Source: a virus. Taken from it: 64,000 bases of DNA. Position numbers and translations under genes: made by a program. The stretch lies in IMG/VR virus record IMGVR_UViG_3300043313_000346, positions 12,885 through 76,884 of that record; one strand, 5' to 3'. The notes under the pieces were generated by a model, which saw only the letters and a list, made by a program, of their open reading frames with translations, had not been told where the DNA came from and made no database searches. Shown piece after piece: positions 3,649 through 21,885 of this stretch. The first letter of the stretch is position 1, and each line of letters opens with the position of its first letter.

Positions 3649-3774
3649 GCGACCGCGCCATCCGCTGGATTGCCGTGTCCGTCTCGCTGGTCGCGTGGGC
3701 GATGATCATTTGGGCGGTGGCCAGCGCCGTCAACGGTTGCGGGGTGCATGCAGCATGACAAGGGAGTCACACCG

Positions 3775-4573: not shown

Positions 4574-4603
4574 AAGCTGCGTCAGAGTTGGTGGGTCTTT
4601 GTC

Positions 4604-4792
4604 ATGGGTAAAGCGAACAGCACATTCCGCCAGCGCGACGTTGTCGCAGCGATCCGCGCGGCCAAGCGCGCGGGACAAAATGTGACATCGTTTGAAATTC
4701 TCCCAAACGGCAATATAAAGGTCCACGTCGGCGCTCCCGCCGATGATTCCTCCAACCAGAAAACGGATGCCGATTCATGGGACGACGTTTGA
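4604..4792 (+). CDS. small integrase-associated protein (possible recombination directionality factor)
   Basis: Overlaps integrase start; FRQRDV..AIRAAKRAG..V.SFEI.PNGNI pattern. Confidence 0.6.
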   Translation: MGKANSTFRQRDVVAAIRAAKRAGQNVTSFEILPNGNIKVHVGAPADDSSNQKTDADSWDDV

Positions 4793-5886: not shown

Positions 5887-5889
5887 ACA

Positions 5890-6077
5890 TGCGATTCCCA
5901 AACCACAGAACAGGGTTTGGGAATGGGACAATTACCCCAATGATTTCAACGTCAATATTTGCACCAGACAATACGGCTTCTTGTCGCTGGTGCATGGAAA
6001 ATCAAGGGGTTACAAATCCCAAACCGGATAAGATGATCCCACACGCTTATTCGGTGTTCTTTCATCGTTCCCAAACC
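5890..6077. other. putative attP
   Basis: AT-rich gap after int. TCCCAAACC at about 5895, 6016, 6068 and inverted at 5914. IHF consensus AATCAAGGGGTTA at 6000-6012. Central imperfect palindrome at 5960-5994. Confidence 0.7.
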
Positions 6078-6110
6078 GCCGTGCCCCGTGACAGGGTGCG
6101 GCGGTTTTTT
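6073..6110 (+). terminator. rho-independent terminator
   Basis: AAACCGCCGTGCCC...GGGTGCGGCGG hairpin followed by T6. Confidence 0.75.
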
Positions 6111-6124
6111 AATGGAGGATTCTG

Positions 6125-6820
6125 ATGCGCCCATTGAACGCCGCGATCGCCGACATTCCGCTGCCTGATCGGATGCGCCGGCTGCCAGTGAGCGACACCG
6201 GGTTTCCGGTCCCGTGGTTCGTCGAATGGATCGACGACAAGCCGGATTTCCGCGTGATGGATTCACGCAAATGGGTCCGCGCGGTGAAGCTCGATTTATG
6301 TTGGTTGTGCGGCGCGACACTGGGCCGCTTCAAGGTGTTCACCGCTGGCCCGATGTGCGCCGTCAACAGGACGTCGGCCGAGCCGCCATCGCATCGTGGC
6401 TGCGCCGAATACGCCGTGAAGGCGTGCCCGTTCCTGACCAAGCCGCGCATGCGCCGCAACAACACGGACCTGCCAGAGCAGCACCAGAAGCCCGGCGGGC
6501 TCATGCTGGAGCGCAACCCCGGCTGCACGCTGCTGTGGATTTGCCACGACTATCGGGTGATCAAGACCGACGGTGGGCCGATCATCAAGATGGGCGAGCC
6601 GGTCGAGATCGTCGCCTATGCCGGCGGCGGGCTCGCGACGCGCGCAGAAGTCGACGCCTCGATCGCGTCCGGCCTGCCGCTGCTCAAAGCTGAATGCTTC
6701 AACGAAGACGACAGGCGCGTGCTCGCGCGCCAGATGGAGCGCGCCGAAGCGGTGTTCAAAACGAAACTGAAGACGGTGGTCACCGAGAGCGATCGCGCTG
6801 CGCTGGCGGGGCGTGCATGA
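6125..6820 (+). CDS. hypothetical protein (Cys/His motifs)
   Basis: GGAGG RBS; CWLC, HRGC and CPF motifs. Confidence 0.8.
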   Translation: MRPLNAAIADIPLPDRMRRLPVSDTGFPVPWFVEWIDDKPDFRVMDSRKWVRAVKLDLCWLCGATLGRFKVFTAGPMCAVNRTSAEPPSHRGCAEYAVKACPFLTKPRMRRNNTDLPEQHQKPGGLMLERNPGCTLLWICHDYRVIKTDGGPIIKMGEPVEIVAYAGGGLATRAEVDASIASGLPLLKAECFNEDDRRVLARQMERAEAVFKTKLKTVVTESDRAALAGRA

Positions 6821-7041
6821 GCGAGAAATTCACGCTCTCGCCGGCTGCGGCCGGCAACTTCGTTATCGGGCTGTCGAGTCCGATGTATTGCGCGAAGATC
6901 ACCGCCGACGGTGTGGTCTTCATCGACTGGAAGGCCACCGAGAACGCCGCCGCAAATCTCAAGCCCACCGATGCGATGACGCTCGCCATCGTGCGCCTGA
7001 TGCTGGCGATCCGCGACGGCACGTTCAAGCCGTTGGAATGA
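6817..7041 (+). CDS. hypothetical protein
   Basis: ATGA-coupled. Confidence 0.6.
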   Translation: MSEKFTLSPAAAGNFVIGLSSPMYCAKITADGVVFIDWKATENAAANLKPTDAMTLAIVRLMLAIRDGTFKPLE

Positions 7042-7054
7042 AGGGAGCAAGATC

Positions 7055-7639
7055 ATGGACACGCAGAGCATCACCCTCGATCCGTCAAAGGCGCGCGAAC
7101 TCTGGCGTGCCTATCGCAAGCATCAGCACTACAGCGAGCCGATCGACCGCGAGATCATGGCGGCCTATCAGAAGCTCGCGCAGGGCAAGCTGATCATCAA
7201 GGCGCTCGACTCGATCGTGAAGGCCGGGCTCGGTGCCGATCGACTGCCCAAGCTCGCGCTGGTGCGCGCCGACAAGAAGGCGTGCCGCTGCACCATGGAC
7301 GCCAACGGCTCGGCGGTGATGTCGGCTGAAGGCTACGACGTGCCGTGGCGTGGTGATGCGCCGCCGAACTCCTGCTACTTTCGCTGGCCTGCGGGGACGT
7401 TCTCCGGTGCAGCCACACGCTACGGCGGGCGCGCGATCACACCGCTGATCCCGATCGACCATCGGCCCAAGCGCGGGCTCGCGAACTATCACATCTTGTT
7501 CGAGGCCGAATGGTCGCGCGTGCCGCCGCGCGATCCGTATCTGCTGCGCCGCATCGGCAAAAGCGATATGTGGGTTGTGCTGGCTATGTGGGACTTGACC
7601 GAGATCGAGCGCGCGGCGCTGGCGGCGCGGATCGCATGA
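7055..7639 (+). CDS. hypothetical protein
   Basis: GGGAG RBS; coding-like composition. Confidence 0.8.
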   Translation: MDTQSITLDPSKARELWRAYRKHQHYSEPIDREIMAAYQKLAQGKLIIKALDSIVKAGLGADRLPKLALVRADKKACRCTMDANGSAVMSAEGYDVPWRGDAPPNSCYFRWPAGTFSGAATRYGGRAITPLIPIDHRPKRGLANYHILFEAEWSRVPPRDPYLLRRIGKSDMWVVLAMWDLTEIERAALAARIA

Positions 7640-8064
7640 GCGACGACGCCAAGGCGGGATGGGAAGTCGAAGGCTTCATCGAGCGGCTGACCCGGCGCGA
7701 TGACAGCAACAGCGAGCGGCTTGTGCTCGAAGCCGTCTCGCACTTGCGCGCGTTCTCGCGCGACTGCGACGCGCTGCGCGCCGCTCGCCATACCGACTCG
7801 CAGCGCATGGTCGCAATGGCTGATAACTACGAACGGCTCGACGACAGGGTGTCCGATCTCACCGAAGCGCTGCAGCGGATCGCGCAATGGGCCGACGCCT
7901 ATCCGCTCGCCGTGTTTCCCGAACCTGATCTAGCGAAGGCTGCAGCGGTGCTGCGCATGCACGGCATGACGATCGACGGCATCAGCGCGCACGTTGCCCG
8001 CCACGTCGTCGAGGGCGTCGGCAAGATCGCGCGCGAGGCTCTAGGGGAGTCCACCAATGGCTAA
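7636..8064 (+). CDS. hypothetical protein
   Basis: ATGA-coupled. Confidence 0.7.
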   Translation: MSDDAKAGWEVEGFIERLTRRDDSNSERLVLEAVSHLRAFSRDCDALRAARHTDSQRMVAMADNYERLDDRVSDLTEALQRIAQWADAYPLAVFPEPDLAKAAAVLRMHGMTIDGISAHVARHVVEGVGKIAREALGESTNG

Positions 8065-10115: not shown

Positions 10116-10382
10116 ATGCCGAGCTTGGACTTCAACCTCAACGGCGATAATTGCTGGCCCGATCTTCGCGAGAAGGAAGTGATCGAGTTGATGGGCGACG
10201 GTGCGCCACCGATCGGCGTCGCGCTGCTCGACAACGGCATGACCAGCGGCAGGCCGAGCATCACGCTGCGCCTCGATCTTCCCGATGGCCGCGTCGTGAT
10301 GACCGAGACCAGCGCGCGGCTGTTCTGCACCGCTGCGCGCATGATCATGGCGAAGCATCCCGATCTGTTCGAGGGAGACTGA
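10116..10382 (+). CDS. hypothetical protein
   Basis: GGGAG RBS. Confidence 0.75.
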   Translation: MPSLDFNLNGDNCWPDLREKEVIELMGDGAPPIGVALLDNGMTSGRPSITLRLDLPDGRVVMTETSARLFCTAARMIMAKHPDLFEGD

Positions 10383-10383
10383 C

Positions 10384-10665
10384 ATGCACACGAAAGATTT
10401 TCTCGCGCAGGAATTACAGAAGGCCGGGCTCGACGAAATGGCTGCCAAGGCGGCTGATGGGTACTATCACGATTTCCTCTCGCCGCTCGACACACCGGAG
10501 CTTCAGCTATTGGCAGACTTGCGCGCGATCGGCACGCCGGCAGCCGAAGCGCTCGCGGCTCGCCATCTCACCGGCGAGTTCGATGCGAGCAAGGAAGAGA
10601 GCGACGCATGGGCGCAGAGTCCCGAAGGACAGGACGCATTCGGCAAGCTGATGAGGGGCTCATGA
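10384..10665 (+). CDS. hypothetical protein
   Basis: GGGAG RBS. Confidence 0.75.
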   Translation: MHTKDFLAQELQKAGLDEMAAKAADGYYHDFLSPLDTPELQLLADLRAIGTPAAEALAARHLTGEFDASKEESDAWAQSPEGQDAFGKLMRGS

Positions 10666-10898
10666 TCTTCACCGGCAAAGTGACAGGTCTGGCCGAAGGC
10701 TCGACGTTCATTGTCCGGCGCTACTTTGACGGACGCCGCGACGGCTATCAGCACGGCTGGAGTCAAACAGGCTACCGTGTGACGCGTCGCTTGACGGACA
10801 GTGTCGAAGCCGAAACCACGGTGATCGGCATGGGCGACGCGAGCCTGCCTATCTTTCAGGTCGTGGGTCCGGATCACAGCCGGCTGGCGCCGTGGTGA
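10662..10898 (+). CDS. hypothetical protein
   Basis: ATGA-coupled. Confidence 0.6.
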   Translation: MIFTGKVTGLAEGSTFIVRRYFDGRRDGYQHGWSQTGYRVTRRLTDSVEAETTVIGMGDASLPIFQVVGPDHSRLAPW

Positions 10899-11077
10899 TC
10901 AGAACCGGCGCCGACTGGCTCAAGCTGCCGCTCAAATTGCGACAACGCTGGTGGCGTGAGACGGACTACGGTAAACGCGAGCCGAGCGACGATCTGAAAA
11001 ACGAGATCGAGAAAATCCTTTCAGCGGTTGGGGCAATCCATGAAGCTGACCAAGCGCCAAAGCGAACTGGTGTGTGA
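10892..11077 (+). CDS. hypothetical protein
   Basis: Coupled ORF. Confidence 0.5.
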   Translation: MVIRTGADWLKLPLKLRQRWWRETDYGKREPSDDLKNEIEKILSAVGAIHEADQAPKRTGV

Positions 11078-11300
11078 ACTGTCGAAGGGGCTGTCGAACA
11101 AGGCGATAGCGCGCAACCTCAATGTCACCGAAGGCACGGTGAAAATGATGCTGCATCTTCTCTACGCCAAAACCGGCACCGCCAACCGCACCGCGCTCGT
11201 GATGCAGTGTGCGCTTGCCGAGTCCGGGAAAGCAGCCGAGCAAATCATTGCACTATCACCGGGCCAAGCAGCAACGGCCCCGGCTCGACTTGACCCGTAG
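11040..11300 (+). CDS. LuxR/GerE-type HTH regulator (no receiver domain)
   Basis: LTKRQ.ELV..LSKGLSNKAIARNLNVTEGTVK..L..LYAK.G..NRT. Confidence 0.9.
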   Translation: MKLTKRQSELVCELSKGLSNKAIARNLNVTEGTVKMMLHLLYAKTGTANRTALVMQCALAESGKAAEQIIALSPGQAATAPARLDP

Positions 11301-11481
11301 CTTCGTAGCGCTGCAGCGCGGCGAACGTGGCGGCCGATGTTGCGAAGCGGATGAACTTCGTTTCCAGTTCGATCAGGGTGAAGTGCTCGAACAGATGCAC
11401 GTCGATCACGTCACCCGGGAACGTGCGCTTGATTGACTCTTCGATCGGCTCGCAGCGATAGCGCTTCCCATACTCCGTCAT
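11245..11481 (-). CDS. hypothetical protein (only convincing minus-strand gene of the left arm)
   Basis: GGAG RBS; faces an AT-rich divergent intergenic region. Confidence 0.6.
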   Translation of the reverse strand: MTEYGKRYRCEPIEESIKRTFPGDVIDVHLFEHFTLIELETKFIRFATSAATFAALQRYEATGQVEPGPLLLGPVIVQ

Positions 11482-11512
11482 GGCATGCTGACTCCGGTTG
11501 ATGGCGCGATGC

Positions 11513-11553
11513 TGTCACATGGTGTCGCAAGGCTATTATCACAAAATGTTACA
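11513..11553. promoter_or_regulatory. tandem operator-like sites
   Basis: TGTCACA-TGG-TGTCGCA (11513) and TATCACA-AAA-TGTTACA (11537). Confidence 0.6.
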
Positions 11554-11785
11554 TCGGTGCCATACGGCTTTCTTGAATCGCACTCGCTCAAAACCGTTCA
11601 AGATGTCCAGCATCCATCGCACCTAATGATTTTTTTCTGCGCGAGTTGTCGCTGTGCCACGCGGAGTCGCGTCGGCAAAAACGATCCGATTCCGAAAAGT
11701 TGAAAAGTCGATTTGCTATATTGCTCGTGTCGCAGTCAGAGAGCGACGGGCTGTTTGAAATGCAAAATCTGAAATGGAGACGAAC

Positions 11786-12046
11786 ATGGCGCAAGCCATC
11801 GACACGACGAACTATGTCTACCTTGCAATGACCGCGAACTTTTGGGCGTCCTCGAAAACGAGCGAGGAAGCTGCGGTGCGATCTCTTCGGGCTCAAGCCG
11901 GATCGTCACAGGTCACGAAGTATGGATGGGTCACCTATCACATCCATCCTGACTTCGAGGTCTGCGGGATCAACGGCGACGTGATGACGCCGATCGGTCA
12001 CAAGGCGATCAAGCTCACCGACAAGATCAAACGCAAGGCGGCATAA
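11786..12046 (+). CDS. hypothetical protein
   Basis: AAATGGAGA RBS. Confidence 0.75.
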   Translation: MAQAIDTTNYVYLAMTANFWASSKTSEEAAVRSLRAQAGSSQVTKYGWVTYHIHPDFEVCGINGDVMTPIGHKAIKLTDKIKRKAA

Positions 12047-12115
12047 AGCAAAGAGCCCGGGACGTGGACGCGTCCCGGGCCCCTCACTCGCAACGCAAGT
12101 ACATGGAGACCTAAC

Positions 12116-12616
12116 ATGCAGACCATACCACTACGCGAACGACGCCACCAGCAAGCGCTCAAGGATCGCGCCCGGCTGGAGCGACAACGCGACGACACGC
12201 TCGACAAGCTCAGCCGCATCGCCGCCAAGCTCAAGGCGGTGCGCCGATCGGTCGAGCGCTACGAGCGAACGCCGATGCACCCGGTGAAGCCTGAGCCTCT
12301 CGCGGTGACGATCTTCCGCGAGATGGCAAAGGACGCGCCCGCTGCATCGGTGAACGTCGAGCCGCCGGCGCCGACACCAGCGCCGCAAGCAGCCGCGCCA
12401 GTGCCCGCGCCGGCGAGCGTCGACGATGACATGCCGGACTTCCTTCGGCGCTCGAAGCCCGATGCCGTCGGTGAAGCGATCGCCGCTGAGCAGGAAGCGA
12501 GGCGCAAGGCCAAGGCGCACGGGCGCATCGCGACGCTGAAGGCCAAGAAAAGCGGCGCCACCAAGCAGATGCCGCTCGAAGGCAAGGCCGCGCTCGCCGC
12601 GATCCGGGGCGGATAA
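12116..12616 (+). CDS. hypothetical protein with Pro/Ala linker and DMPDFLRR motif
   Basis: ATGGAGA RBS. Confidence 0.75.
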   Translation: MQTIPLRERRHQQALKDRARLERQRDDTLDKLSRIAAKLKAVRRSVERYERTPMHPVKPEPLAVTIFREMAKDAPAASVNVEPPAPTPAPQAAAPVPAPASVDDDMPDFLRRSKPDAVGEAIAAEQEARRKAKAHGRIATLKAKKSGATKQMPLEGKAALAAIRGG

Positions 12617-12636
12617 AAAACCCGCGCTACCCCAGC

Positions 12637-12665
12637 AAAGCCGCCCTTCGGGGCGGCTTTTTCTT
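12637..12665 (+). terminator. rho-independent terminator
   Basis: AAAGCCGCCC-TTCG-GGGCGGCTTT followed by TTCTT. Confidence 0.9.
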
Positions 12666-12713
12666 GTGTGTTTTCAGCCGCTTGCCAAAGGCAAAAAAGA
12701 TGTGGCTGGCCTC

Positions 12714-12742
12714 TTGTGTCACATCATGTGACATGCCATATA
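12714..12742 (+). promoter_or_regulatory. sigma70-like promoter with a perfect palindromic operator over the spacer
   Basis: TTGTGT-N17-CATATA; TGTCACA-TCA-TGTGACA at 12717-12733. Confidence 0.6.
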
Positions 12743-12749
12743 CGTCTCT

Positions 12750-13134
12750 CGTTACTTGATTGGTTGCTCCCCTGCGGTGCCTTCGGGCGCTCACTTGACG
12801 AGGGGGGTCCGGCACCAGACCCGGTTGATTGATGAGCATCGCTCTCACAGCCGCACCGCTCCCCTCAGAAGGATCGGCTCAGTCACTGCCCGGGGTACCA
12901 GTAAAATGGCCACACCAATTTCACTGCAGAACATGCGGACGCAACGCGTCGCGCGAACACTGCAGCCACCTCCCCGACGAATAGCGGCGCGCACGCACGA
13001 TGCGCGCACGGTGCGAGGACAGACGACGCAATGGTCAAGAGCGCGAGGGCGCGGCCATGACGAAGACGACACGGTCAAGAGCACGAGGGTGCGACCCTGT
13101 TGATGCTGACACTGCGCGGCGCCACGCGCCGCAG
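12750..13134 (+). ncRNA. candidate structured leader / ncRNA
   Basis: About 390 nt with no convincing ORF; cUUCGg hairpin near 12776; imperfect direct repeat at 13021/13063; fragments of the cassette element. Confidence 0.35.
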
Positions 13135-13230
13135 TGACCACTGAAGAGCGGCGACCAGACGAAGGCGCGCCGCTTCACAGTGTTCATGCACTCGCGCCTC
13201 GCAACGGCGCGCCAACAAATGGAGAATGCA
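13135..13230 (+). repeat. conserved upstream structured element, copy 1
   Basis: TGACCACTG..GAGCGGCG..CGCCGCTTCACAGTGTTCATG..GCGCC-TCGCAAC-GGCGC..AAATGGAGA. Confidence 0.9.
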
Positions 13231-14256
13231 ATGACTGCTCTTCTGAACGAAGTTGAATGCACGATCGCGGAAGCGGCTGTGCTGCTCGAAAGGCAACTTG
13301 CCAAGGGCAAGCCCGTGATGATGTGGGGCGCGCCCGGGCTCGGCAAGTCGGCGATCGTCTGGCAGCTTGGCGCCAAGCAGGGCCGCAAGGTGATCGAGTA
13401 TCGCGCCAACCTGCGCGAGCCGGTCGACGTGCGCGGCATCCCGGTGCCCGATCTGGTGAGCGGCACGACACGCTGGCTTGTGCCGGAAGACCTGCCGAAC
13501 GCCGAGCGCGACGGCGAGTTCGGTTACCTGTTCCTCGACGAGATCAACACGGCGTCGCCGCAGATGATGGCGGTGCTGTTCGGTCTCGTGCTCGATCGGC
13601 GCATCGGTGACTACGTGCTGCCGGCTGGCTGGCAGATCATCGCTGCCGGCAACCGCGTGAGCGATCGCGCGGCGGCTCAACGGATGCCGACGGCGCTGCG
13701 CAACCGCTTCTCGCATCTGACCGTACTGCCCGACGTCAACGCGTGGGCGGTGTGGGCGAACGCGAACGGTGTGGCGCCTGAGATGGTGGCGTTCGTCCGC
13801 TTGCGGCGCGAACTGATCCACCGGATGCCGCGCGGCGATGAGAACGCATTCCCGACGCCGCGCTCGCTGACGGCGGCTGCGGAGTTCGTTGACGAGCCGA
13901 GCATCGCGCTGCGGCAAAAGCTGTTCGCCATGCACGTCGGCAATGACGTCGCCGGCGAGTTGAACGGCTTCATCGAGCTTTATCAATCGCTCGGTTCGCT
14001 CGACGACATCGTCGCCGATCCTGCCAATGCGAAGGTGCCCACCGAACCTTCGCAACTCTACGCGGTCTGCACCGGGCTCGCGCGTCTCGCGACGCGAAAG
14101 AACTGGTCGCAGATCGTGACCTATGCCGAGCGGCTGCGCGGCGAGCATCAAGTTCTGCTCGTGCATGACGCCGTGATGCGTGACCCGAAGCTGAAAGAGA
14201 CGTCGGCCTATTCCAAGTGGGCCGTCGCCAATCAGGGCGCGCTGATGCAATCGTGA
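13231..14256 (+). CDS. MoxR-like AAA+ ATPase
   Basis: Walker A GAPGLGKS, Walker B LFLDE, AAGN sensor, ALRNRF Arg finger. Confidence 0.92.
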   Translation: MTALLNEVECTIAEAAVLLERQLAKGKPVMMWGAPGLGKSAIVWQLGAKQGRKVIEYRANLREPVDVRGIPVPDLVSGTTRWLVPEDLPNAERDGEFGYLFLDEINTASPQMMAVLFGLVLDRRIGDYVLPAGWQIIAAGNRVSDRAAAQRMPTALRNRFSHLTVLPDVNAWAVWANANGVAPEMVAFVRLRRELIHRMPRGDENAFPTPRSLTAAAEFVDEPSIALRQKLFAMHVGNDVAGELNGFIELYQSLGSLDDIVADPANAKVPTEPSQLYAVCTGLARLATRKNWSQIVTYAERLRGEHQVLLVHDAVMRDPKLKETSAYSKWAVANQGALMQS

Positions 14257-14346
14257 GCAGTAAGGGCGGCGCCGTGTGCGCCGCCCCATAGTGCCCATGC
14301 ACTGCGCCGTCGCAACCGGCGCCAACCTTTCAAATGGAGATTCCCA
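14254..14346 (+). repeat. conserved upstream structured element, copy 2
   Basis: GGGCGGCGC/GCGCCGCCC stem; GCGCCG-TCGCAAC-CGGCGC; AAATGGAGA. Confidence 0.9.
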
Positions 14347-15243
14347 ATGAACGCGAAAACGAAAGTGATCGCCTCGCCGCTGTCGCGGAAGGCAACGCTG
14401 GTGTCGGTCGACATCAGCCAATGGACGGCACGCAAGCTCGACAAGCGGGTGACGGACAAGGTCAACCGCGAGCACAACGCGGCCGACGACGCCGGCCGCT
14501 ATCACAAGCTGCTGATCGAGGCCAAGCGGCTCGAAGCGATCAACTCGCTGGTCGCGCAGGCACGCCGGCTGCACTACACGATGACGAAGCCGTGGGCCGA
14601 CGAAGGCTTGCGCATCCTGCCGAACAAGCTGCACGAAAAGTTCGCCAGCGAGTTTCGCAAATTGAAGCGCGAGTTCGACGTGGCTGCTGATGACTTCTGC
14701 CGCGAATATCCGACGTTCATTGCCGAGCGCAAGAAAGCTCTCAACGGCTTGTTCAACGCGTCGGACTATCCGCCGGCCGATGAGATCAGGAGCAAGTTCC
14801 GGCTGACGACGAAGACGTTCCCACTGCCTGAGTCGGATGACTTTCGCTCGGACGTGCTCGACGCGGACACGGTCGAAGACATCAAGCGCGAGCTTGCCGA
14901 GACGAACGAAGCGGTGCTTGCCGATGCGATGAAGCACACGGCCAAGCAGATCACCGAAGTCGTCGGGCACATGGCCGAGAAGCTGAAGGCGTACAAAAAG
15001 CCGGGCAAAGGTTCGCGCAGCTTTTTCTCGCACACGCTGGTCGAGAACGTGCGGCAGCTTGCCGAGCTTCTGCCGGCCTTCAATCTCGACAACGATCCGG
15101 CGCTCGACGCGATCGCCGATCGCATCAACAAAGAACTTTGCGTCGAAGACGCAGAGACACTGAGACACGACGACAACGCGAGGAAGTCGGTGGCCAAGAG
15201 CGCCGACGACATCCTGCGCGATGTCGAAAGCCTGCTCGGCTGA
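14347..15243 (+). CDS. helical protein of the AAA/VWA module (DUF3150-like)
   Basis: Lies between the ATPase and the VWA-peptidase; family call is by resemblance only. Confidence 0.65.
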   Translation: MNAKTKVIASPLSRKATLVSVDISQWTARKLDKRVTDKVNREHNAADDAGRYHKLLIEAKRLEAINSLVAQARRLHYTMTKPWADEGLRILPNKLHEKFASEFRKLKREFDVAADDFCREYPTFIAERKKALNGLFNASDYPPADEIRSKFRLTTKTFPLPESDDFRSDVLDADTVEDIKRELAETNEAVLADAMKHTAKQITEVVGHMAEKLKAYKKPGKGSRSFFSHTLVENVRQLAELLPAFNLDNDPALDAIADRINKELCVEDAETLRHDDNARKSVAKSADDILRDVESLLG

Positions 15244-15290
15244 GAGCGCGCCCGGCCGCAACCCGGGCGCTTTTCAAAATGGAGATGACA
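15241..15290 (+). repeat. conserved upstream element, copy 3 (short form)
   Basis: GCGCCCGG-CCGCAAC-CCGGGCGC then AAATGGAGA. Confidence 0.85.
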
Positions 15291-16730
15291 ATGCAGACGA
15301 TCGACACGGTGACGGCACAAGCCGCCGAGCGCGTGAGCAAGGCGCGCCAAGAACTGATCCTTGAGCGCACGTTCTACGGCGTGCTGGTCAGCCAAGTCGA
15401 GGCCAAGCCGTCGCGCGACTTCCCGACGATGGCGACGAACGGCCGGACGCACTTTTTCAATCCGGACTTCATCGCCTCTCTGTCGCAGGTCGAAGTGCTC
15501 GGCGTGCAGGCGCACGAGACCGAGCACGATGCGCGCCGCCATCACACGCGGCGCGGTAACCGCGATCCGCAAGAATGGAACGTGTGCTGCGATCTCGCGA
15601 TCAACCCTGACCTGATCCGCGCGGGCTTCAAGCTGCCGGAAGGCGCCCTGCTCGACTGGCGCTTCGAGGGCATGTCAGCCGAAGACATCTATCGGACGCG
15701 CGAGCTTGAGCGGCAGCCGCCGCAACAGCCGCAGCCCGAATCGGACAAATCGGACAAAGCGGACAAAGCGGACAAATCGGACAAATCGGACAAATCGGAC
15801 GGAACCGATGGAACCGACGGCGACGATGCCGACGGCGACGAAGGCGCTGGCGAGGGCGCTGGTGAAGCCGGCGAAGAGCCGGGCGACACTGGCACCGGCG
15901 AAGGCGCCGGCGACGCTGGCGAGCCCGGTGAGGGCACCGGCGAGGGCTCTGGCGAGGGCGAAGGCTCGGACGCTGGCAGCGATGCCGGCGAGGCCAAGCC
16001 GGGGCCGTCTTCGGGCGATCCCGGCCGCTGCGGCGAAGTGCTCGACGCGGCGGTTGATGCCGCCGAGCGGGCCGACGTCGACGCCAAATGGGAACGTGTC
16101 GTGCGCGAGGCCGCAAGCCTCGCACGCAAGCGCGGCGACGCTCCCGGGCACGTGTCGCGCGAGATCGAGCGGAACGATCATCCCCCGCAAGACTGGCGCG
16201 AGACTTTGCGTGCCTTTTTCGACGGCGGCGCGGTGACCACCGAAACGTGGTCGCGTCCGAACCGGCGCTTCATCGGCGGCGGGCTCTATCTGCCCGGCCG
16301 CGAGCGTGACGGCGTCAACCGCGTCGCCATGCTGGTCGACACGTCCGGTTCGATGGATGATGTCGCGCTTGCGGCGATCGGCGTCGAAGTGCAAGCGGCG
16401 CTCGATGAGAACATCATCGACGAGCTTGTCGTGATCTACGGCGACACGCGGGTGACGCGCGTCGACACGTATCGCGGCGGCGACGAGATCGAGTTCGATC
16501 CGCGTGGCGGTGGCGGCACCCGGTTGATGCCGCTGTTCGATCACGTGGCGAACGAAGTCGATGCTTCGCTGATCGTGTGCTTCACCGACGGTGAGCACGA
16601 GATCACCAGCGCGCACGCTGAGCCGGCTTGCCCGGTCCTGTTTGCGATCACCGGCTTCCCGCAGGACGTTCGCCACTACGTCGCGAATGCACCGTGGGGC
16701 GCCACCGCGATCGACGTCGGATCGCACTGA
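15291..16730 (+). CDS. putative metallopeptidase with VWA domain (DUF2201-like)
   Basis: TMATNG, HETEH (HExxH), acidic Gly-rich linker, MIDAS DTSGS, GGGGT, FTDG. Confidence 0.9.
   Translation: MQTIDTVTAQAAERVSKARQELILERTFYGVLVSQVEAKPSRDFPTMATNGRTHFFNPDFIASLSQVEVLGVQAHETEHDARRHHTRRGNRDPQEWNVCCDLAINPDLIRAGFKLPEGALLDWRFEGMSAEDIYRTRELERQPPQQPQPESDKSDKADKADKSDKSDKSDGTDGTDGDDADGDEGAGEGAGEAGEEPGDTGTGEGAGDAGEPGEGTGEGSGEGEGSDAGSDAGEAKPGPSSGDPGRCGEVLDAAVDAAERADVDAKWERVVREAASLARKRGDAPGHVSREIERNDHPPQDWRETLRAFFDGGAVTTETWSRPNRRFIGGGLYLPGRERDGVNRVAMLVDTSGSMDDVALAAIGVEVQAALDENIIDELVVIYGDTRVTRVDTYRGGDEIEFDPRGGGGTRLMPLFDHVANEVDASLIVCFTDGEHEITSAHAEPACPVLFAITGFPQDVRHYVANAPWGATAIDVGSH
15741..15800 (+). repeat. 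9-bp coding tandem repeat (T/G)CGGACAAA, about 6.7 copies
   Basis: Encodes SDK/ADK repeats in the linker. Confidence 0.9.
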
Positions 16731-16815
16731 CCACTGCAGGGCGGCGTCGCAAGGCGCCGCCTCACAGTGTTCATGACGAACACCCGGCCCGCAACGCCGG
16801 ATCACAAATGGAGTA
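16728..16815 (+). repeat. conserved upstream structured element, copy 4
   Basis: TGACCACTG..GCAA loop..CACAGTGTTCATG..CCGGC-CCGCAAC-GCCGG..AAATGGAG. Confidence 0.9.
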
Positions 16816-17220
16816 ATGACAATGAAAAAGCTTGGTGGAGTTCTGATCATCATCGTCGGCCTGATCTGGCTGAGCAACGGCAAGCCCGCCGACACGACGC
16901 CGGCATCGCCGTGCAAATCCGATTGGACAAAATGCACCGACAACGCCGACATGGCGAACAACTTCGGCGGCTGGTCCGGCGTGCAATATGACTGCAAAAA
17001 ACAGGCGGAAGAACTCGCCAAATACGGCACGCCAGAATGGCCGTGGTTCGCCTTCTCATCCTTCCGCCCCGGCAGCAACTACAGCACCGGCACCGTCACG
17101 GTGATCGAGCCCGATGCCAAATTCCAGAACGGCTTCGGCGCGATGGTGCGCTCGCGCGTGGTCTGTGAATACGATCTGCGCAGCAAGAAGGTGACCAACG
17201 TCGACATCAGCGCGCGATGA
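16816..17220 (+). CDS. exported / membrane-anchored Cys-containing protein
   Basis: N-terminal KK plus hydrophobic stretch; QNGFGA motif. Confidence 0.8.
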   Translation: MTMKKLGGVLIIIVGLIWLSNGKPADTTPASPCKSDWTKCTDNADMANNFGGWSGVQYDCKKQAEELAKYGTPEWPWFAFSSFRPGSNYSTGTVTVIEPDAKFQNGFGAMVRSRVVCEYDLRSKKVTNVDISAR

Positions 17221-17309
17221 GCACCACCGAGCGGCGCTTCGGCGCCGTTCCATAGTGCCCACGACGGACACTGCCGGCGCAACCGGCGCATCAAATGGAG
17301 ACTTTCAAA
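17218..17309 (+). repeat. conserved upstream structured element, copy 5
   Basis: GAGCGGCGC-TTCG-GCGCCGTTC; GCCG-GCGCAAC-CGGC; AAATGGAGA. Confidence 0.9.
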
Positions 17310-17519
17310 ATGGCGAATCTCTACACCTACGAATGCCGCGCTTGCGGCTTCGCTCAAGTCTTCCGCGAAGACAACAGCATGCATTGCCCGCACTGCCGCG
17401 CGTGGCCGATGCGCGAGGCGCTGCCGAGCGTCGACGCGATGCTCGCGACGATCGACACCGTGATCGGCTGCGATGATACCGAGATGGCCGACAAGGCAAC
17501 CCGGAGGGCAGCACGATGA
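17310..17519 (+). CDS. small Zn-ribbon protein
   Basis: YECRAC...CPHC. Confidence 0.7.
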   Translation: MANLYTYECRACGFAQVFREDNSMHCPHCRAWPMREALPSVDAMLATIDTVIGCDDTEMADKATRRAAR

Positions 17520-17683
17520 GCCGGAAGACCGAAAGCAAGAAGGCCGCGCGCGTGCTGCGCGAAGTCTTCGACGCCAAGCTGCCAGTGCCCGGCGTGACCA
17601 CGCGTGATCGCGACGCGGCGCTGTGGCTGGCGATCACGATCCTTGAAGCCCGCGCGCAAGATGCAGACAGTGAGGAAGGATAA
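17516..17683 (+). CDS. hypothetical protein (55 aa, not in ORF track)
   Basis: GGAGG RBS, ATGA coupling; MSRKTESKKAARVLREVF... Confidence 0.6.
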   Translation: MSRKTESKKAARVLREVFDAKLPVPGVTTRDRDAALWLAITILEARAQDADSEEG

Positions 17684-17686
17684 AAA

Positions 17687-18103
17687 ATGAAACATCTGAC
17701 CAAGGCACAGGTAGCAACGCGCGACGAACTGATCGCCGCGCTGCGCGGGAAAGACAAGGCGATCGATGATGCCATCATCGAGATCAACAACAAGATCGAC
17801 GAAGTCAACGTGCTGATCGAAGAGAACCTCAAGCCCGCGATCGACGACTACAACGGTGCGCTCGGCGATCTCGAAGAACTGCGCAATGAGATCGTCGGCC
17901 AGATGGACGACTATGTTAACGCGCGCTCTGAGAAGTGGAGCAACAGCGATGCCGGCGCGAACTATTCGTCGTGGAAGGACGAATGGGAAGGCATCGACAT
18001 GAGCCCGCTCGACGACATCGAGCCGCTTGCACATCTCGAAGCATCGGACCCGGCACACGCCAACGAGTTCGAAGCGCTGTCGAGCGAGGTTCAAGAAGAC
18101 TGA
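17687..18103 (+). CDS. acidic helical hypothetical protein
   Basis: GAGGAAGG RBS; D/E-rich. Confidence 0.8.
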   Translation: MKHLTKAQVATRDELIAALRGKDKAIDDAIIEINNKIDEVNVLIEENLKPAIDDYNGALGDLEELRNEIVGQMDDYVNARSEKWSNSDAGANYSSWKDEWEGIDMSPLDDIEPLAHLEASDPAHANEFEALSSEVQED

Positions 18104-18202
18104 GTGCTGCCAGAGCGGCGCGGGACAACTCGCGCCGCTTCACAGTGTTCATGCTGAGCACTCCCGCCGCAACGCGGGCAAAAATCCAAATGGAGAAAAA
18201 CG
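18101..18202 (+). repeat. conserved upstream structured element, copy 6
   Basis: GAGCGGCGCG..CGCGCCGCTTCACAGTGTTCATG; CCCGC-CGCAAC-GCGGG; AAATGGAGA. Confidence 0.9.
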
Positions 18203-18550
18203 ATGAAGTATCTACTGCCTCTTGCCGTCGCGCTTGCAATGACATCCGGCGCGAATGCCGGCTACACCGCCGGCGAGCTATTGAAGGAATGCAAGGCCGA
18301 CTCGAAGAAAGCGGCTTGCGCGACCTATGTGACGGCTACATGGGATACATTCGAGGCACTGGCTTGGACTCATAAAGAGCTTGTCATTGCCAACATCTGC
18401 ATCCCGCACGGCATCACGGTCGTGCCGGCCGAGATGATCAAGCTCGCTGAAACGCGGATTCAGGAACAGAAGGCGACGCCGGATATGTCCGCTGCGGCGG
18501 TGCTGCTTGCTGGCCTGCGATCCAAGTTCAATTGTTTCGATCGACGCTGA
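18203..18550 (+). CDS. secreted Rap1a/Tai4-like immunity-family protein
   Basis: Signal peptide; TAGELLKEC...ACATYV...D...ICIP...AA.VL..L...FNC Cys pattern. Confidence 0.65.
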   Translation: MKYLLPLAVALAMTSGANAGYTAGELLKECKADSKKAACATYVTATWDTFEALAWTHKELVIANICIPHGITVVPAEMIKLAETRIQEQKATPDMSAAAVLLAGLRSKFNCFDRR

Positions 18551-18626
18551 TCACTGCAGAGCGGTGCCAAATCTGGCGCCGCTTTTCATGCCGGTCGCAA
18601 CCCGGCTCAACAAATGGAGAACTGAA
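18548..18626 (+). repeat. conserved upstream structured element, copy 7
   Basis: TGATCACTGCAGAGCGG..CCGCTT; GCCGG-TCGCAAC-CCGGC; AAATGGAGA; lacks CACAGTG. Confidence 0.85.
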
Positions 18627-19280
18627 ATGAAGACGCTGAAATGCGTCGCGCTCGCTGCCGCACTGCTCGCCAGTGCTTCGAGCGCGCACGCTGCAATGAA
18701 GGCCTACCAGACATCCGGCCTTTGGTCCGCGAATGCCGGCACGGCCAACGACGGCACGCCGATGTGCTCGATGAGCATCCAAGACAAGGAACGCGCGGCC
18801 TTCATCAAGTGGCAGGCGGGAAGCGAAAATCTGTTCGTGCAGGTTTATAAGTCAAGCTGGAATATCCCGATCGGCACAACGATGCCGATGACGATCCAGT
18901 TTGATCGCGCCGAGCCGTTCAAGGGGACCGCGACATCGATTCCCGGTGGCAACGGGCAGATGATCGAAGTGTCTCTCAAAAACGAGGAAGGCAGCACGAT
19001 CCCCCGGTCGTTCATGGAGGAATTCGCATCGGCGGTGAAGATGTACTTCATCTTTCCCGGCGGCAACGAAACGCTATGGTCCGCACCGATGGAAGGCTCG
19101 CGCATCATCGCCGGATCGTTTGCGAAATGCGTGATCGACTATTCCAAATATGCGACGCCCAAGACGCAGCCGCACAAGGGCGGTGGCGGCGGCGGGGCGA
19201 CGCAGCCGCACAACAGCACCCCGGCTGAGCCGGTGGCGCCACCACCACTGAGCGGCAGCGCCAAACGCAACGACATCTAA
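18627..19280 (+). CDS. secreted hypothetical protein
   Basis: Signal peptide ending in AHA; Gly/Pro-rich tail. Confidence 0.8.
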   Translation: MKTLKCVALAAALLASASSAHAAMKAYQTSGLWSANAGTANDGTPMCSMSIQDKERAAFIKWQAGSENLFVQVYKSSWNIPIGTTMPMTIQFDRAEPFKGTATSIPGGNGQMIEVSLKNEEGSTIPRSFMEEFASAVKMYFIFPGGNETLWSAPMEGSRIIAGSFAKCVIDYSKYATPKTQPHKGGGGGGATQPHNSTPAEPVAPPPLSGSAKRNDI

Positions 19281-19283
19281 AGG

Positions 19284-19383
19284 TGACCACTGCAGAGCGG
19301 CGTGCCACAAGCGCGCCGCTCGACAGTGTTCATGCGAACACTCGCCCGCCGCAACCGGGCGCAAAAAAATGGAGAACCTTACA
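19284..19383 (+). repeat. conserved upstream structured element, copy 8
   Basis: TGACCACTGCAGAGCGGCG..CGCCGCTCGACAGTGTTCATGCGAACACT; CGCCCG-CCGCAAC-CGGGCG; AAATGGAGA. Confidence 0.9.
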
Positions 19384-19614
19384 ATGACGATAAAGTCCCT
19401 CATCCTGACGGCGGCGCTCTTGCTCGCCGGCCCGCACATGCTGCGCGCCGATGACGCCAAGGGCGCGGCCGATGACGCATCCCGCGAATGGAGTCCGATC
19501 GAGGTTGTCTACTTCTGCAATCTTCCTCTGGCCGAAGCCAAGATCGAGAACTGCACGGCAGCGCAGCCGAAGCGACAGCGACAAGCGCGCTTGCGCAAGA
19601 AGGTGATCCGATGA
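19384..19614 (+). CDS. small secreted hypothetical protein
   Basis: Signal-peptide-like N-terminus. Confidence 0.65.
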   Translation: MTIKSLILTAALLLAGPHMLRADDAKGAADDASREWSPIEVVYFCNLPLAEAKIENCTAAQPKRQRQARLRKKVIR

Positions 19615-20021
19615 AACCCACCAAGCGCGAATGCGGCGGCTGCACGCTGTGCTGCAAGTTGTTGGCTGTGCCGGCGATCGAGAAGCCGCAAGACAAGTGG
19701 TGCAAGCACTGCACCATCGGTGTCGGCTGCGCGATCAACGGCAGCGAGCAGCGACCAGAGGCTTGCGGCCTGTTCGATTGCCTCTGGCTGCAAGGCTACG
19801 GCGACGACAACATGCGGCCCGACAAATCGAAGGTCGTCATGGGCATGACGTCGGACGGCAAAAGCCTCGTGCTCTATGTCGATCCGTCGCGGCCGGAAGC
19901 GTTCCGCGAACCGGCGATCGACAAGACGATCGACAAGCTGATCGCGAACGGCATGAAGGTGTTCGTCGTATGCGGCGACAAGCGCCGGATGATCTCAAAC
20001 CAAAATGGAGAACCGACATGA
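19611..20021 (+). CDS. CxxCxxCC (YkgJ-like) Cys-cluster protein
   Basis: CGGCTLCC...C..C...GC.I...RPEAC..F.C.W. Confidence 0.85.
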   Translation: MKPTKRECGGCTLCCKLLAVPAIEKPQDKWCKHCTIGVGCAINGSEQRPEACGLFDCLWLQGYGDDNMRPDKSKVVMGMTSDGKSLVLYVDPSRPEAFREPAIDKTIDKLIANGMKVFVVCGDKRRMISNQNGEPT

Positions 20022-20263
20022 CGAACGAAGAGAAAGACCTGCTGCGCCGAATCGCAACGGTGCTGCAACAGCCGCGCAATCGCTTCGGCTGCATTCAAGG
20101 CGGGGCGTCGCACGCGCGCGACGCTGCGCCGGCTGATCTGGTGAAGCGCCTGCCGCACGGCGGCGTCGACGCTGCTGATCAGTGCGCCATGCTCCTGCAG
20201 TCGCTGATCGGCGATCCGGTGATGTCGATCGGCGACATGGGCAACATGAGGACTCGGGCATGA
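20018..20263 (+). CDS. hypothetical protein
   Basis: AAATGGAGA RBS. Confidence 0.65.
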   Translation: MTNEEKDLLRRIATVLQQPRNRFGCIQGGASHARDAAPADLVKRLPHGGVDAADQCAMLLQSLIGDPVMSIGDMGNMRTRA

Positions 20264-20919
20264 CCGACATTTGGCCCGTGATCCATCTCTCAACCGTCGA
20301 CAAGCTCACGGTCGAGAACGCCAGCATGGCCGCGCGCTGCGGCTGTCCCGGCGTGTTTCTCATCTCGATGAGCGGCTACGACGACGCGGTCGATCCTGCG
20401 GCGGCGCTGATCCGGCGCGAAGTGCCGGGGCTCAAGATCGGCATCAACCTGCTGACCAAGTCGCCATCGTGGGCGGTGTGCCACAGCATGAACCAAGGCT
20501 ATGACGCGACATGGTCCGACTTTGCGTGGCAGGGCACCGGCGTTGATGCCTACATCGAGAAGGCCGGCGTCGATCACAAGTTCTTCGCCGCCGTCGCGTT
20601 CAAGGGCGAGACGCACAACGAGCCGGACCCGCACGCGAGCGCGCGCGAGGCCGTGGCGCGCGGATTTATTCCGATGACGAGCGGCAGCGGCACCGGCGTC
20701 ACCGCGCCGTTCGAGAAGATCGAGCGGCTGCGCAAGGCGATCGGTCCCGCCGCGCCTCTCGCGATGAGCGGCGTGCATCCACCGCACGCCGATCGGTTGG
20801 TGCCGCTGGTGACGCACTTCCTCGTCGCCACGTGCATCAGCCGGGACTTCTACACGTTCGATGAAGCGATGCTGCAATACTTGATCGGCAAGACTGCCGG
20901 CGCTTCTGTTGTTGCCTGA
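20260..20919 (+). CDS. BtpA/SgcQ-like TIM-barrel protein
   Basis: PVIHL, IGINLL, VAFKG, TSGSGTG, SGV and LVAT motifs. Confidence 0.7.
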   Translation: MTDIWPVIHLSTVDKLTVENASMAARCGCPGVFLISMSGYDDAVDPAAALIRREVPGLKIGINLLTKSPSWAVCHSMNQGYDATWSDFAWQGTGVDAYIEKAGVDHKFFAAVAFKGETHNEPDPHASAREAVARGFIPMTSGSGTGVTAPFEKIERLRKAIGPAAPLAMSGVHPPHADRLVPLVTHFLVATCISRDFYTFDEAMLQYLIGKTAGASVVA

Positions 20920-21139
20920 ATCAAAATCCCCGGCCGAGCTTCACGCTCGACCGGGGACTCTTGCTCGTGCGATCGCAACTTCGGCAACGAGCCTCGCGAT
21001 CGGACCAAATGGAGAAAGCCCCGATTCGCGAGTGGGTGTCATTTAAGCGCACTTGGAACTTTTTTCAACTTTTGGCCGCTTCGAAGGCACGTGCGGTCTT
21101 CATCGCTTTTGCTTCAATAGCTTGGGGCTGGAAGCATCA

Positions 21140-21188
21140 TGTAACAAGTTGTGACAAATTTTTGCGAACGCCCAACGGAGGTTAGAAT
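21140..21188 (+). promoter_or_regulatory. operator plus putative promoter of the first XRE gene
   Basis: TGTAACA-AGT-TGTGACA at 21140-21156; TAGAAT at 21183. Confidence 0.6.
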
Positions 21189-21224
21189 TTCGACAGGCAA
21201 AAAATACAGTTTCCCAAGGCGGCT

Positions 21225-21449
21225 ATGCGAAGACGAACGGCTCAATTTGTTAGACTCGCGCGCGCTAAGCTCAAGATGACACAAGCAGAATTTGCGAAAC
21301 GGCTTGGGCTCGAACGTCGCAGCATCTTGCGATACGAGAAGGGCGAACCGTTGCCACCGACGGTGTACTTCGCGATCAAATTTCTGGTCGCGCGTGACAG
21401 GCTCAACAAGCAACGAGCCAAAGAGCGGATCAACAAAAGAGCCAATTAA
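21225..21449 (+). CDS. XRE-family HTH regulator, paralog 1
   Basis: ARAKLKMTQAEFAKRLGLERRSILRYEKG. Confidence 0.88.
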   Translation: MRRRTAQFVRLARAKLKMTQAEFAKRLGLERRSILRYEKGEPLPPTVYFAIKFLVARDRLNKQRAKERINKRAN

Positions 21450-21624: not shown

Positions 21625-21885
21625 ATGACTACGACGGACTTCGCTACCGACACGATGACTCCAATGAAGAGCACTGCAGGCTTCGTGAAGCGTGCGCGTG
21701 CGAAGCTCCAGATGACTCAGGGTGAATTCGCTGAGCGTCTCGGGCTCGAACGCCGCACCATCATAAGATACGAGAAAGGCGAGCCTCTGCCTCCGACGGT
21801 TTACTTCGCAATCAAGCATCTGGTCTCACGTCATAAGCTCAACAAGCAAAGAGCCAAAGACCGAGCGACCGCCAAGGAAGACTAA
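21625..21885 (+). CDS. XRE-family HTH regulator, paralog 2 (start uncertain)
   Basis: ARAKLQMTQGEFAERLGLERRTIIRYEKG. Confidence 0.88.
   Translation: MTTTDFATDTMTPMKSTAGFVKRARAKLQMTQGEFAERLGLERRTIIRYEKGEPLPPTVYFAIKHLVSRHKLNKQRAKDRATAKED

Follow-up and report, generated by a model that had tools for sequence, protein, structure and literature searches.

In a 64,000-nucleotide (nt) stretch of viral DNA (the window, bases 12885-76884 of the single IMG/VR virus record IMGVR_UViG_3300043313_000346, which has 76,884 bases), eight related intergenic elements stand before the genes of a plus-strand array, which follows a leader and begins with a conserved triad (13231-16730 in window coordinates) encoding an AAA_5 ATPase, a DUF3150 protein and a DUF2201 metallopeptidase/VWA protein (HExxH + VWA). 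We found that in a clade of temperate phages from soil, all uncultivated, these elements join the genes of the early/accessory operon, and that about 100 sense-strand copies exist in 29 related IMG/VR or metagenome loci. We read them as "connectors", widespread intercistronic mRNA modules that would make each gene cassette independently expressible, would be bistable and would supply the homology for cassette exchange, and we put the probability of this reading at roughly 0.55, a figure that covers the structures, folds and breakpoints described below together with the roles proposed for them. Judging from the sequence comparisons, the module probably sets the expression of each swappable gene.

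The module, about 85-95 nt long, begins at the stop codon of one gene and ends at the start codon of the next; it contains no promoter and is arranged as stop codon and outer stem, a GC hairpin (H1), a second hairpin (H2, AGUG...CACU), a third hairpin (H3), an A/C-rich spacer, the Shine-Dalgarno sequence (SD) and the start codon. This one plan is common to 48 distinct full-length elements from 15 phages. Of the 42 aligned elements, 32 open with TGA. After the stop codon come CACU(A/G), a GC-rich hairpin whose loops are free, (U/C)AGUG, a short CACU-closed hairpin, and a hairpin with a GCA-containing loop. An initial annotation of the window had listed eight elements, all of which lie where it placed them, and had described them as two hairpins; the outer stem, the inner hairpin and the hairpin with the loop sequence CGCAAC (H3) of that description stand, and what it overlooked is the middle hairpin H2 and the two-state fold. 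The layout given there, TGA-N-CACTG...CAGTG-T-TCA, fits copies 1, 4 and 8 and does not fit copies 2, 5 and 6, which have covarying outer-stem variants (TGAGCAC...GTGCCCA and TGAGTGCTG...CAGTGTTCA), nor copies 7 and 3.

H3 is the part of the module most readily recognised in the window. The pattern CGCAAC-N5-25-AAATGGAG, in which AAATGGAG is the extended ribosome-binding box, has eight matches, all on the plus strand and all at array junctions, against 0.02 expected from shuffles; AAATGGAG alone has 11 matches against 1.1 expected and lies 6-9 nt ahead of 10 starts in the operon. When the 76.9-kb genome was scanned for CGCAAC flanked by complementary arms, the eight were returned and no other site was followed by an SD. 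Each of the eight H3 sites precedes the SD by 6-13 nt, the loop is (N)CGCAAC throughout, as the annotation had it, and the second-hairpin stems it listed are correct or one pair longer, all of them Watson-Crick. The 22 H3 copies from the window and three related contigs comprise 15 distinct stems, every one G/C-only and perfectly paired, with the loop (N)CGCAAC in 22/22. In an ungapped alignment of 17 distinct window-clade copies, 92% of the cells are paired, compared with 52% in shuffles, and pairing falls to 30-41% when the partner is slid; all six of the six pairs are changed on both sides, and 0/500 shuffles reach the covariation score. Orthologous junctions in relatives differ by compensated changes, for example one base pair lost from both arms before the DUF2201 gene. 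The H3 loop is under selection. On the minus strand at 31639-31672, tandem 9-nt repeats GGCGCAACC lie in a 769-amino-acid (aa) tail-fibre gene, whose PHROG matches include collagen-like minor tail proteins, and because of these repeats there are some chance CGCAAC matches outside the array.

Relatives were collected by an exact pattern scan of IMG/VR, which returned three contigs, and by protein-anchored searches with the DUF2201 protein and then with its alignment, which returned 80 loci (designated L005 and so on where they must be told apart). Contigs whose DUF2201 protein is 48-62% identical to that of the window have a GC hairpin of 5-7 bp with a GCA-core loop before nearly every gene around the triad, and across about 19 phage contigs H3 is a 5-8 bp G/C stem capped by such a loop. 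The loop reads CUGCAAA in L023, L027, L028, L030 and L059; CUUGCA or CUUGCAA in L019, L022, L037, L046 and L062; CUUGCAAAC in L020; CUUGCU in L050 and L037; CUAGCA(A/C) in L026 and L040; and YCGCAAC in the window clade, with CGCAAC and CUUGCA together in L035. Aligned on GCA, these loop sequences are plainly homologous. The CGCAAC loop, which had been taken as the defining feature, is one lineage's version of this GCA-core loop of the related phages. In most family copies the 3' end of H3 lies 7-14 nt before GGAG. The loop core occurs in 46% of the plus-strand hairpins followed by an SD and ATG, compared with 5% of the other plus-strand hairpins and 7-10% on the minus strand, and perfect stems of at least 5 bp are found at 65% of the loop-core sites with SD and ATG compared with 4% elsewhere; the exact loop-core ratios are generous because the core pattern was defined after seeing the data, the effect being about tenfold.

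Two further ideas about the loop were discarded. Kissing of loops is not a family-wide property, as UUGCAA, UGCA and CUAG are palindromic and CGCAAC is not. CUGCAAA and CUUGCAA resemble the anticodon loops of tRNA-Cys and tRNA-Ala, a likeness that we keep as a curiosity; mimicry of a tRNA or its anticodon loop was rejected, as the GCA register shifts between lineages and the window clade has C at the position of U33.

For the remaining helices, RNAalifold applied to the 42 aligned elements recovers the inner H1 and H2, with 10 of the 14 pairs changed on both sides. A covariance model, R1, was built on H1 and H2; the pairs of H3 had to be left out, since its arms shift in position and MAFFT fails to align them. 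R1 gave 108 plus-strand matches of 25-84 bits in 29/53 sources, many of them outside the seed, and on the minus strand only 20 weak matches, all at or below 36 bits; it had no matches in the more distant triad-bearing phages. Among 95 distinct R1 matches with AGUG in place, H3 is present in 78 and a GCA-type loop in 63. The covariation check and the model search of related phage and metagenome loci that the initial annotation had proposed are thereby answered in its favour: H3, H1 and H2 all covary, and 0/500 shuffles are as good. Its statement that the element belongs to no named family also agrees with our Rfam check (release 15), in which there was no gathering-score match over the whole window and, at E ≤ 5 over 11400-21300, none on any element. 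Full-text literature searches yielded no description of the motif.

The conserved helices (inner H1 and H2 in the 42-element alignment) hold 55 G·U cells against 7 A·C cells, a bias that points to a sense-strand RNA, since a palindrome acting as DNA would not show it. The earlier statement that stem mismatches are G-T on the plus strand is borne out for the wider family by these counts and fails for the window clade alone, in which the long-hairpin mismatches are 21 G·T against 28 A·C, without strand bias; the structure on the mRNA strand that had been deduced from it finds strong support in the covariation together with the G·U bias. Calling the strand from minimum free energy (MFE) folds of whole elements proved misleading, with the minus strand folding slightly better, and the conserved-helix counts settled the strand. 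Action of the elements on the flanking cistrons at the post-transcriptional level is well supported by these comparisons.

The segment AGTG(TTC), which closes the long form of H1, can pair instead with (GAA)CACT directly before the CGCAAC hairpin, and this pairing is H2. In the long fold, the outer stem (alignment columns 1-9 with 46-54) stands below the inner stem and the stop codon is paired; 96.3% of the cells are paired, compared with 77.6% in shuffles, the covariation score is 0.523 against 0.172 (0/500), and pairs 1-54, 2-53, 3-52 and 9-46 are changed on both sides. In the alternative fold, H2 (columns 47-53 with 60-66) accompanies the inner stem, with 96.5% of the cells paired compared with 78.6% in shuffles, a score of 0.486 against 0.164 (0/500), and four pair types at 51-62 and at 52-61. 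Columns 47-53 are used by both folds, which are mutually exclusive, and their shared core AGUG is invariant, as expected of a segment with two partners. The sole position that belongs to the outer stem only covaries as well (A:U 30, G:C 12), and 44/49 are Watson-Crick in an independent tally. Over 48 elements the predicted energy difference between the folds is -1.6 ± 2.5 kcal/mol, with totals of about -35 to -45. The compensatory changes in both pairings indicate that both folds are under selection. In the long fold an internal loop separates the 8-bp outer stem from an inner stem of 9-12 bp, about 17-20 bp in all, with UUCG or GCAA loops, and the outer stem starts at, or a few bases from, the stop codon; a single-stranded linker of 10-14 nt exists in the long-H1 state only. 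The MFE folds show no consistent pairing of the SD.

The eight elements, all on the plus strand, vary around this plan. Element 1 (13135-13233; 65.3 bits with R1) lies at the end of the leader, before the AAA_5 ATPase gene, and has the outer stem TGAcCACTG/CAGTGtTCA, the inner hairpin H1, a short H2 (AGTG..CACT), H3 at 13193-13211 (CGCGCC-tCGCAAC-GGCGCG), AAATGGAG at 13217-13224 and the ATG at 13231. Elements 2 and 4 both start with the stop codon TGA: the former (14254-14349; 63.7 bits) precedes the DUF3150 gene, with H3 at 14304-14322 (GCGCCG-tCGCAAC-CGGCGC), the SD at 14332-14339 and the ATG at 14347, and the latter (16728-16824; 74.9 bits) precedes the gene of a 132-aa membrane or secreted protein, with the H1 loop C-GCAA-G, H2 as AGTGTTC/GAACAC, H3 at 16784-16800 and the ATG at 16822. 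Element 3 (15241-15293), before the DUF2201 metallopeptidase/VWA gene, is the minimal form of H3 plus SD that the initial annotation had recognised; its H3 (15248-15270, an 8-bp stem with the loop cCGCAAC) is followed by TTTT, the SD (15277-15284) and the ATG (15291), it alone of the eight has a terminator-like T-run, and L006 and L008 have this minimal form here too. Element 5 (17218-17312; 65.1 bits), which we call type B, stands before the gene of a 69-aa Zn-ribbon protein and combines the outer stem TGAGCAC/GTGCCCA with H3 at 17272-17288 and an ATG at 17310; its H1 has the UUCG loop (cUUCGg) that had been reported together with the GCAA loop of element 4, both correctly. The outer stem of element 6 (18101-18205; 62.6 bits), before the gene of a Rap1a-like exported protein, includes three G·U pairs that are possible on the plus strand only, with one more G·U in H2; H3 (18163-18178) has the 6-nt loop CGCAAC, and the ATG is at 18203. 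Element 7 (18548-18629), a weaker R1 match of 40.4 bits before the gene of a 217-aa exported protein, has H1 and H3 (18590-18606) without the CAGTG segment and H2, and its ATG is at 18627. The canonical full form is element 8 (19284-19386; 80.4 bits), before the gene of a 76-aa exported protein. Its TGA is not the real stop codon, which is a TAA 6 nt farther upstream; H3 is at 19343-19361 and the ATG is at 19384. A degenerate relative on the same strand (12050-12118), with a GC hairpin, CGCAAC without a stem, and ACATGGAG, precedes the gene of a 166-aa Arg-rich coiled-coil protein (ATG 12116).

Gene content around the elements was compared between relatives, as had been proposed, and it differs exactly at the elements. 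Compared with L005, which is 95% identical, the window is without one 78-aa open reading frame (ORF) and one element, at the element 6 junction, and the copies on either side of that frame in L005 both match about 69 nt of the window's junction element. Both the L005-type and the window arrangement occur among contigs of four soil metagenomes. Homology with L006 (71% protein identity) runs through element 4, ends exactly at the start codon (16824) and resumes only at an ORF-less terminal element (20914-21016, plus strand), and homology with L008 breaks at the DUF2201 stop codon; between these breakpoints each phage has different genes. Since the breaks in homology and the gain or loss of genes sit at the modules, the modules are the joints of the variable cassette region. 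The terminal element closes the array, is kept in L006 and L008, and forms the right-hand border of that region; it has a GC hairpin, CGCAAC in a larger loop and, at 21007-21014, a copy of AAATGGAG that no ORF follows, and could be either a vestigial junction or a fixed right-hand joint for incoming cassettes.

In the connector reading, the module would allow every gene that is swapped in to be expressed independently from a single long transcript. H1 would act as a 3' stabiliser of the upstream cistron, its long form being a candidate RNase III substrate, and H3 as a 5' insulating or stabilising hairpin, whose invariant loop may be read by a phage or host factor at the edge of the ribosome footprint; a host factor is as likely as a phage factor to do so. 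As the outer stem starts at or near the stop codon, a ribosome terminating there would melt the stem and hold it open, favouring the H2 fold, and the state of the fold would thereby report whether the upstream cistron is translated. According to the folding predictions, such a flip does not simply unmask the SD; its effect could instead be to allow cleavage of the long duplex or the exposed linker, stacking of H2 on H3, or access of a factor to H3. Masking of the SD, or translational coupling through secondary structure, was tried and rejected, neither the MFE folds nor blocking of the first 17 nt showing an effect. The module would also supply the homology for exchange, because the same module flanks every cassette.

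Several observations weigh against this reading. When the first 17 nt are forced to be single-stranded, the predicted accessibility of the SD and AUG is left at 0.54 compared with 0.55 (8 up, 10 down). L029/L007, L032 and L066 have a hairpin, a lineage-specific spacer and an SD without the conserved loop, and a generic hairpin may therefore suffice for part of the function. U-rich tails follow 25/91 H3 hairpins, which could be attenuators instead, and the outer stems of the type-B copies in the window clade include A·C mismatches. As for a partner of the loop, no gene family within ±6 kb separates the loci with a GCA loop from the others, in a test blurred by shadow ORFs, and homologues of the Arg-rich protein encoded at 12116-12616 occur in 7/41 loci, are missing from most loci with H3 and are present in some without it. 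They are also absent from four related fragmentary records without CGCAAC elements. The Arg-rich protein, whose family comprises 54 clusters, has no Pfam or PHROG family, and Atlas and PDB profiles match coiled-coil look-alikes only; not being co-distributed with H3, it was rejected as the main candidate for an N-like binder. The Zn-ribbon protein (17310) was likewise dropped as a conserved partner, its relatives in L006 and L008 sharing the C-terminal half only, without the zinc ribbon.

A more specific scheme, which we entertain only tentatively, takes the module as a sensor of ribosome termination, in which the fold flips and only one state lets the GCA-loop hairpin recruit a factor or a 30S platform for translation or protection of the next cistron; if true, this would be a plug-and-play translational coupling without SD masking that travels with horizontally exchanged genes. 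The elements may instead be purely signals for RNA processing and stability, with RNase III cutting the long H1 or RNase E cutting the linker, as between T7 early genes, so that each cistron is left with a 3' H1 and a 5' H3 and the loop serves hairpin stability or recognition by a nuclease. The geometry of the long fold (8-bp outer stem, small internal loop, 9-12 bp inner stem, stable UUCG/GCAA loops) makes processing by RNase III plausible, and the 10-14 nt linker of the long-H1 state, together with the hairpin that relatives without conserved loops keep before the SD, fits this explanation too; yet classical RNase III substrates have helices of ~22 bp, longer than these, and stability alone fails to account for the conservation of the loop, beside freely drifting stems, among phages with flanking proteins only ~50% identical. 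As a complete account we consider processing unlikely. Less probable still is that the elements are evolutionary connectors of the PeSL kind with little regulation, each a terminator or insulator hairpin with a ribosome-binding site and exchange homology, kept alike by concerted evolution. Breakpoints of cassette gain, loss and replacement at the elements, SD contexts fixed by lineage, and a cargo made up mostly of ORFans and exported proteins are what such connectors would leave, but gene conversion would equalise the stems, and nearly every copy has a different one, the loop and the AGUG/CACU cores being fixed; compensatory changes preserve two alternative pairings in 15 phages, and the G·U bias reflects selection on the RNA strand.

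We regard as very improbable that H3 is a boxB-like antitermination site, at which an N-like protein binds and the polymerase then reads through the hairpins and the terminator at 12637-12660. H3 is a small GC hairpin with GCAA, a GNRA-type sequence, in its loop; the gene of the Arg-rich protein lies just upstream and is followed by that strong terminator; and U-rich tails are found on copy 3 and on the 25/91 family members mentioned above. The boxB analogy of the initial annotation nevertheless gives way on each further point: there is no boxA-like partner, the sites stand at every gene and not once per operon, most H3 hairpins are without a U-tract, and the only Arg-rich candidate does not co-occur with H3 and matches coiled-coil proteins only in its profile. 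An action at the DNA level, as attC-like folded single-strand recombination sites or as promoters (sigma-54, sigma-70 or a hairpin for a phage RNA polymerase), is the least credible explanation. A co-oriented cassette array, imperfect palindromes that include the stop codon, and the sequence TTGCA of many family loops, which resembles the sigma-54 -12 box, would suit it. Against these stand the excess of G·U over A·C in the conserved helices and the tight tie between position and SD; no element has sigma-70-like hexamers, GG at sigma-54 spacing is found in 0/8 loops, CGCAAC is unpaired in the loop and there is no GTTRRRY/RYYYAAC core pair, the sole recombinase, encoded 7 kb away, is a tyrosine integrase of the phage type, and no phage RNA polymerase is found among the large genes.

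The SD context of the elements is fixed by lineage: AAATGGAG in the window, AACGGAAATGGAGATTTCC in L008, AACGGAGC in L007 and AGGAGTCAGCA in L010. Within 5190-9950 of L008 (= L035), 5/5 CGCAAC elements end in an identical 23-nt box AACGGAAATGGAGATTTCCAAATG, in which GGAAAT/ATTTCC can enclose the SD GGAG as a tetraloop; this self-complementary ribosome site is absent from the window. L007 (= L029, L036; 52% identical) has at 10170-11650 a second, unrelated repeated junction before four small genes, composed of an outer stem cgtttcg...cgaagcg (with G·U on the plus strand), an inner GCGCA/TGCGC hairpin with free loops, and CCAATCCTTGGTGACTTCAG-AACGGAGC. In the distant triad phage L066 (30% identity), eight GC hairpins with unrelated loops at 3500-8000 are each followed by a fixed spacer GGTCTTGGCAAACC...AGGAG before the gene, and on this sequence pattern the hairpin-spacer units are another connector family of the same general kind.

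The window has a GC content of about 63%. It encodes an integrase (4777-5886) that matches general phage integrase families and, on the minus strand, a large terminase, a major-head/protease fusion, a tail sheath, a tape measure and tail fibres, and because of these genes we assign the genome, from its predicted proteins, to a temperate myovirus-like phage. Among isolated phages it has no close relative by DNA, the best protein matches being 33% (Vibrio phages) and 43% (lambdoid terminases), and neither a pattern scan nor a protein scan of representative prokaryote genomes found a prophage copy. The stretch is present in runs of 12 soil, rhizosphere or sediment metagenome studies, none of them an RNA run. 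The phage has no tRNA genes.

Every gene between 11786 and 20919 lies on the plus strand. The operon opens with two small genes, for an 86-aa protein and for the 166-aa Arg-rich coiled-coil protein, and the region that follows (12617-13134, plus strand) comprises the strong intrinsic terminator 3' of the latter gene (12637-12660), a palindromic operator/promoter region and the leader. The near-perfect palindrome TGTGTCACAT-C-ATGTGACA (12715-12734), between terminator and leader, looks like a repressor operator over a promoter that would drive the array. A structured leader of about 400 nt without an ORF feeds the array. It contains at ~12922-12965 the arrangement CACTGCAG...CGCAAC...CACTGCAG, like a scrambled element and without a convincing ORF, and at 12980-13134 two tandem hairpins (~13033-13056 and ~13073-13096) with a GAGG loop, which differ by compensatory changes (GCGC/GCGC compared with GCAC/GTGC).

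The triad leads the array in 29/29 sources that carry the RNA family. The DUF2201 protein, which has 479, 473, 477 and 485 aa across relatives, contains an acidic low-complexity insert (15735-15990) built from the short tandem repeats cggacaaat/cggacaaag followed by GGCGA-rich units, and its PHROGs label of "HNH endonuclease" is unsupported by its Pfam domains. Downstream of the triad are unrelated small genes, several with signal peptides, and the cargo of the cassettes consists mostly of ORFans and exported proteins; the Rap1a-like protein scores 27.3 bits, just under the Pfam cut-off of 27.7, and another cassette gene (17310) is that of the 69-aa Zn-ribbon protein. For DUF3150, the triad genes and several cassette proteins, nothing was found in PDB or PADLOC. 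Just past the array, two paralogous genes of XRE-type helix-turn-helix proteins (21225-21449 and 21625-21885), about 79% identical over 170 nt and matched in relatives, are probably immunity or lysis-lysogeny regulators.

Temperate phages constantly swap small accessory genes, and how a newcomer comes to be expressed is poorly understood. A portable RNA junction would bring its own structure, its ribosome site and possibly a regulatory handle, and the case for one is made here by three helices with compensatory changes in about 100 copies, G·U pairs specific to one strand and two maintained pairings. To our knowledge, few natural RNAs between cistrons are bistable and linked to a stop codon. 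Should a host or phage protein read the loop, the modules would constitute a post-transcriptional regulon common to a large group of abundant soil phages. Builders of synthetic operons for GC-rich bacteria could also use the module as a natural insulator part.

Among known systems, the RNase III sites between T7 early genes are irregular hairpins, interrupted by an internal loop, that separate the cistrons of a single long early transcript. The modules share with them the irregular hairpin and internal loop, which could leave a protective 3' hairpin on the upstream mRNA, but their helices are shorter (somewhat short for two helical turns), and two more hairpins, H2 and H3, come after the first, the loop of H3 being invariant and at a constant distance from the SD. 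The lambda nut site consists of boxA and a boxB pentaloop hairpin bound by N, one per operon. H3 resembles boxB in being a small GC hairpin with a GNRA-type sequence in the loop, in an early phage transcript that holds terminators; in contrast to nut, its loop has 6-7 nt, its flanks are variable with no boxA-like conserved segment, and there are eight sites, each tied to an SD, with no N-like protein that co-occurs. Unlike integron attC sites, whose folded form has an R''/R' core pair (RYYYAAC...GTTRRRY) at its base, the modules have CGCAAC unpaired in the loop and no GTTRRRY partner, and no integron integrase is encoded next to the array, the only integrase (4777-5886) being of the phage type and 7 kb upstream. 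With regard to sigma-54 promoters (TGGCAC-N5-TTGCA), which have the spacing GG-N10-GC, none of the eight loops is among the 41 GG-N10-GCAA matches, a total no more than chance.

Two more of the closest systems are repeated intergenic sequences of phages. In T4-type phages, PeSL (promoter-early stem-loop) cassettes have a strong sigma-70 promoter at their core and a single terminator stem-loop (Arbiol et al. 2010, PMC2839356). Like our modules, they are repeated intergenic units that run from the upstream stop codon to the downstream SD and start and include a GC-rich stem-loop, they are concentrated before small non-essential ORFans, and insertions, deletions and replacements between close relatives break at them (PMC2839356). 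The modules differ in having no promoter-like hexamers, a scan of 11300-21400 for sigma-70-like promoters giving two sites only, near 11512-11563 and outside all elements, and in having three helices, a conserved loop and two folds. The SAS/ESAS sequences of Cluster K mycobacteriophages likewise provide a fixed extended ribosome-binding box 3-8 nt before some of the non-structural genes, and it is kept at orthologous genes throughout the cluster, with an inverted repeat upstream in about half of the cases (Pope et al. 2011, PMC3203893). AAATGGAG is an analogue only of the SAS box, its sequence being unrelated to GGGATAGGAGCCC. The inverted repeats of ESAS have 17-bp half-sites conserved in sequence and a variable spacer (PMC3203893), whereas in the modules it is the loop that is conserved and the arms that covary and differ from copy to copy, with extra helices and an alternative fold linked to the stop codon. 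The modules are a real, previously undescribed structured RNA family and, within this company, a variant of phage intergenic regulatory cassettes rather than something categorically new.

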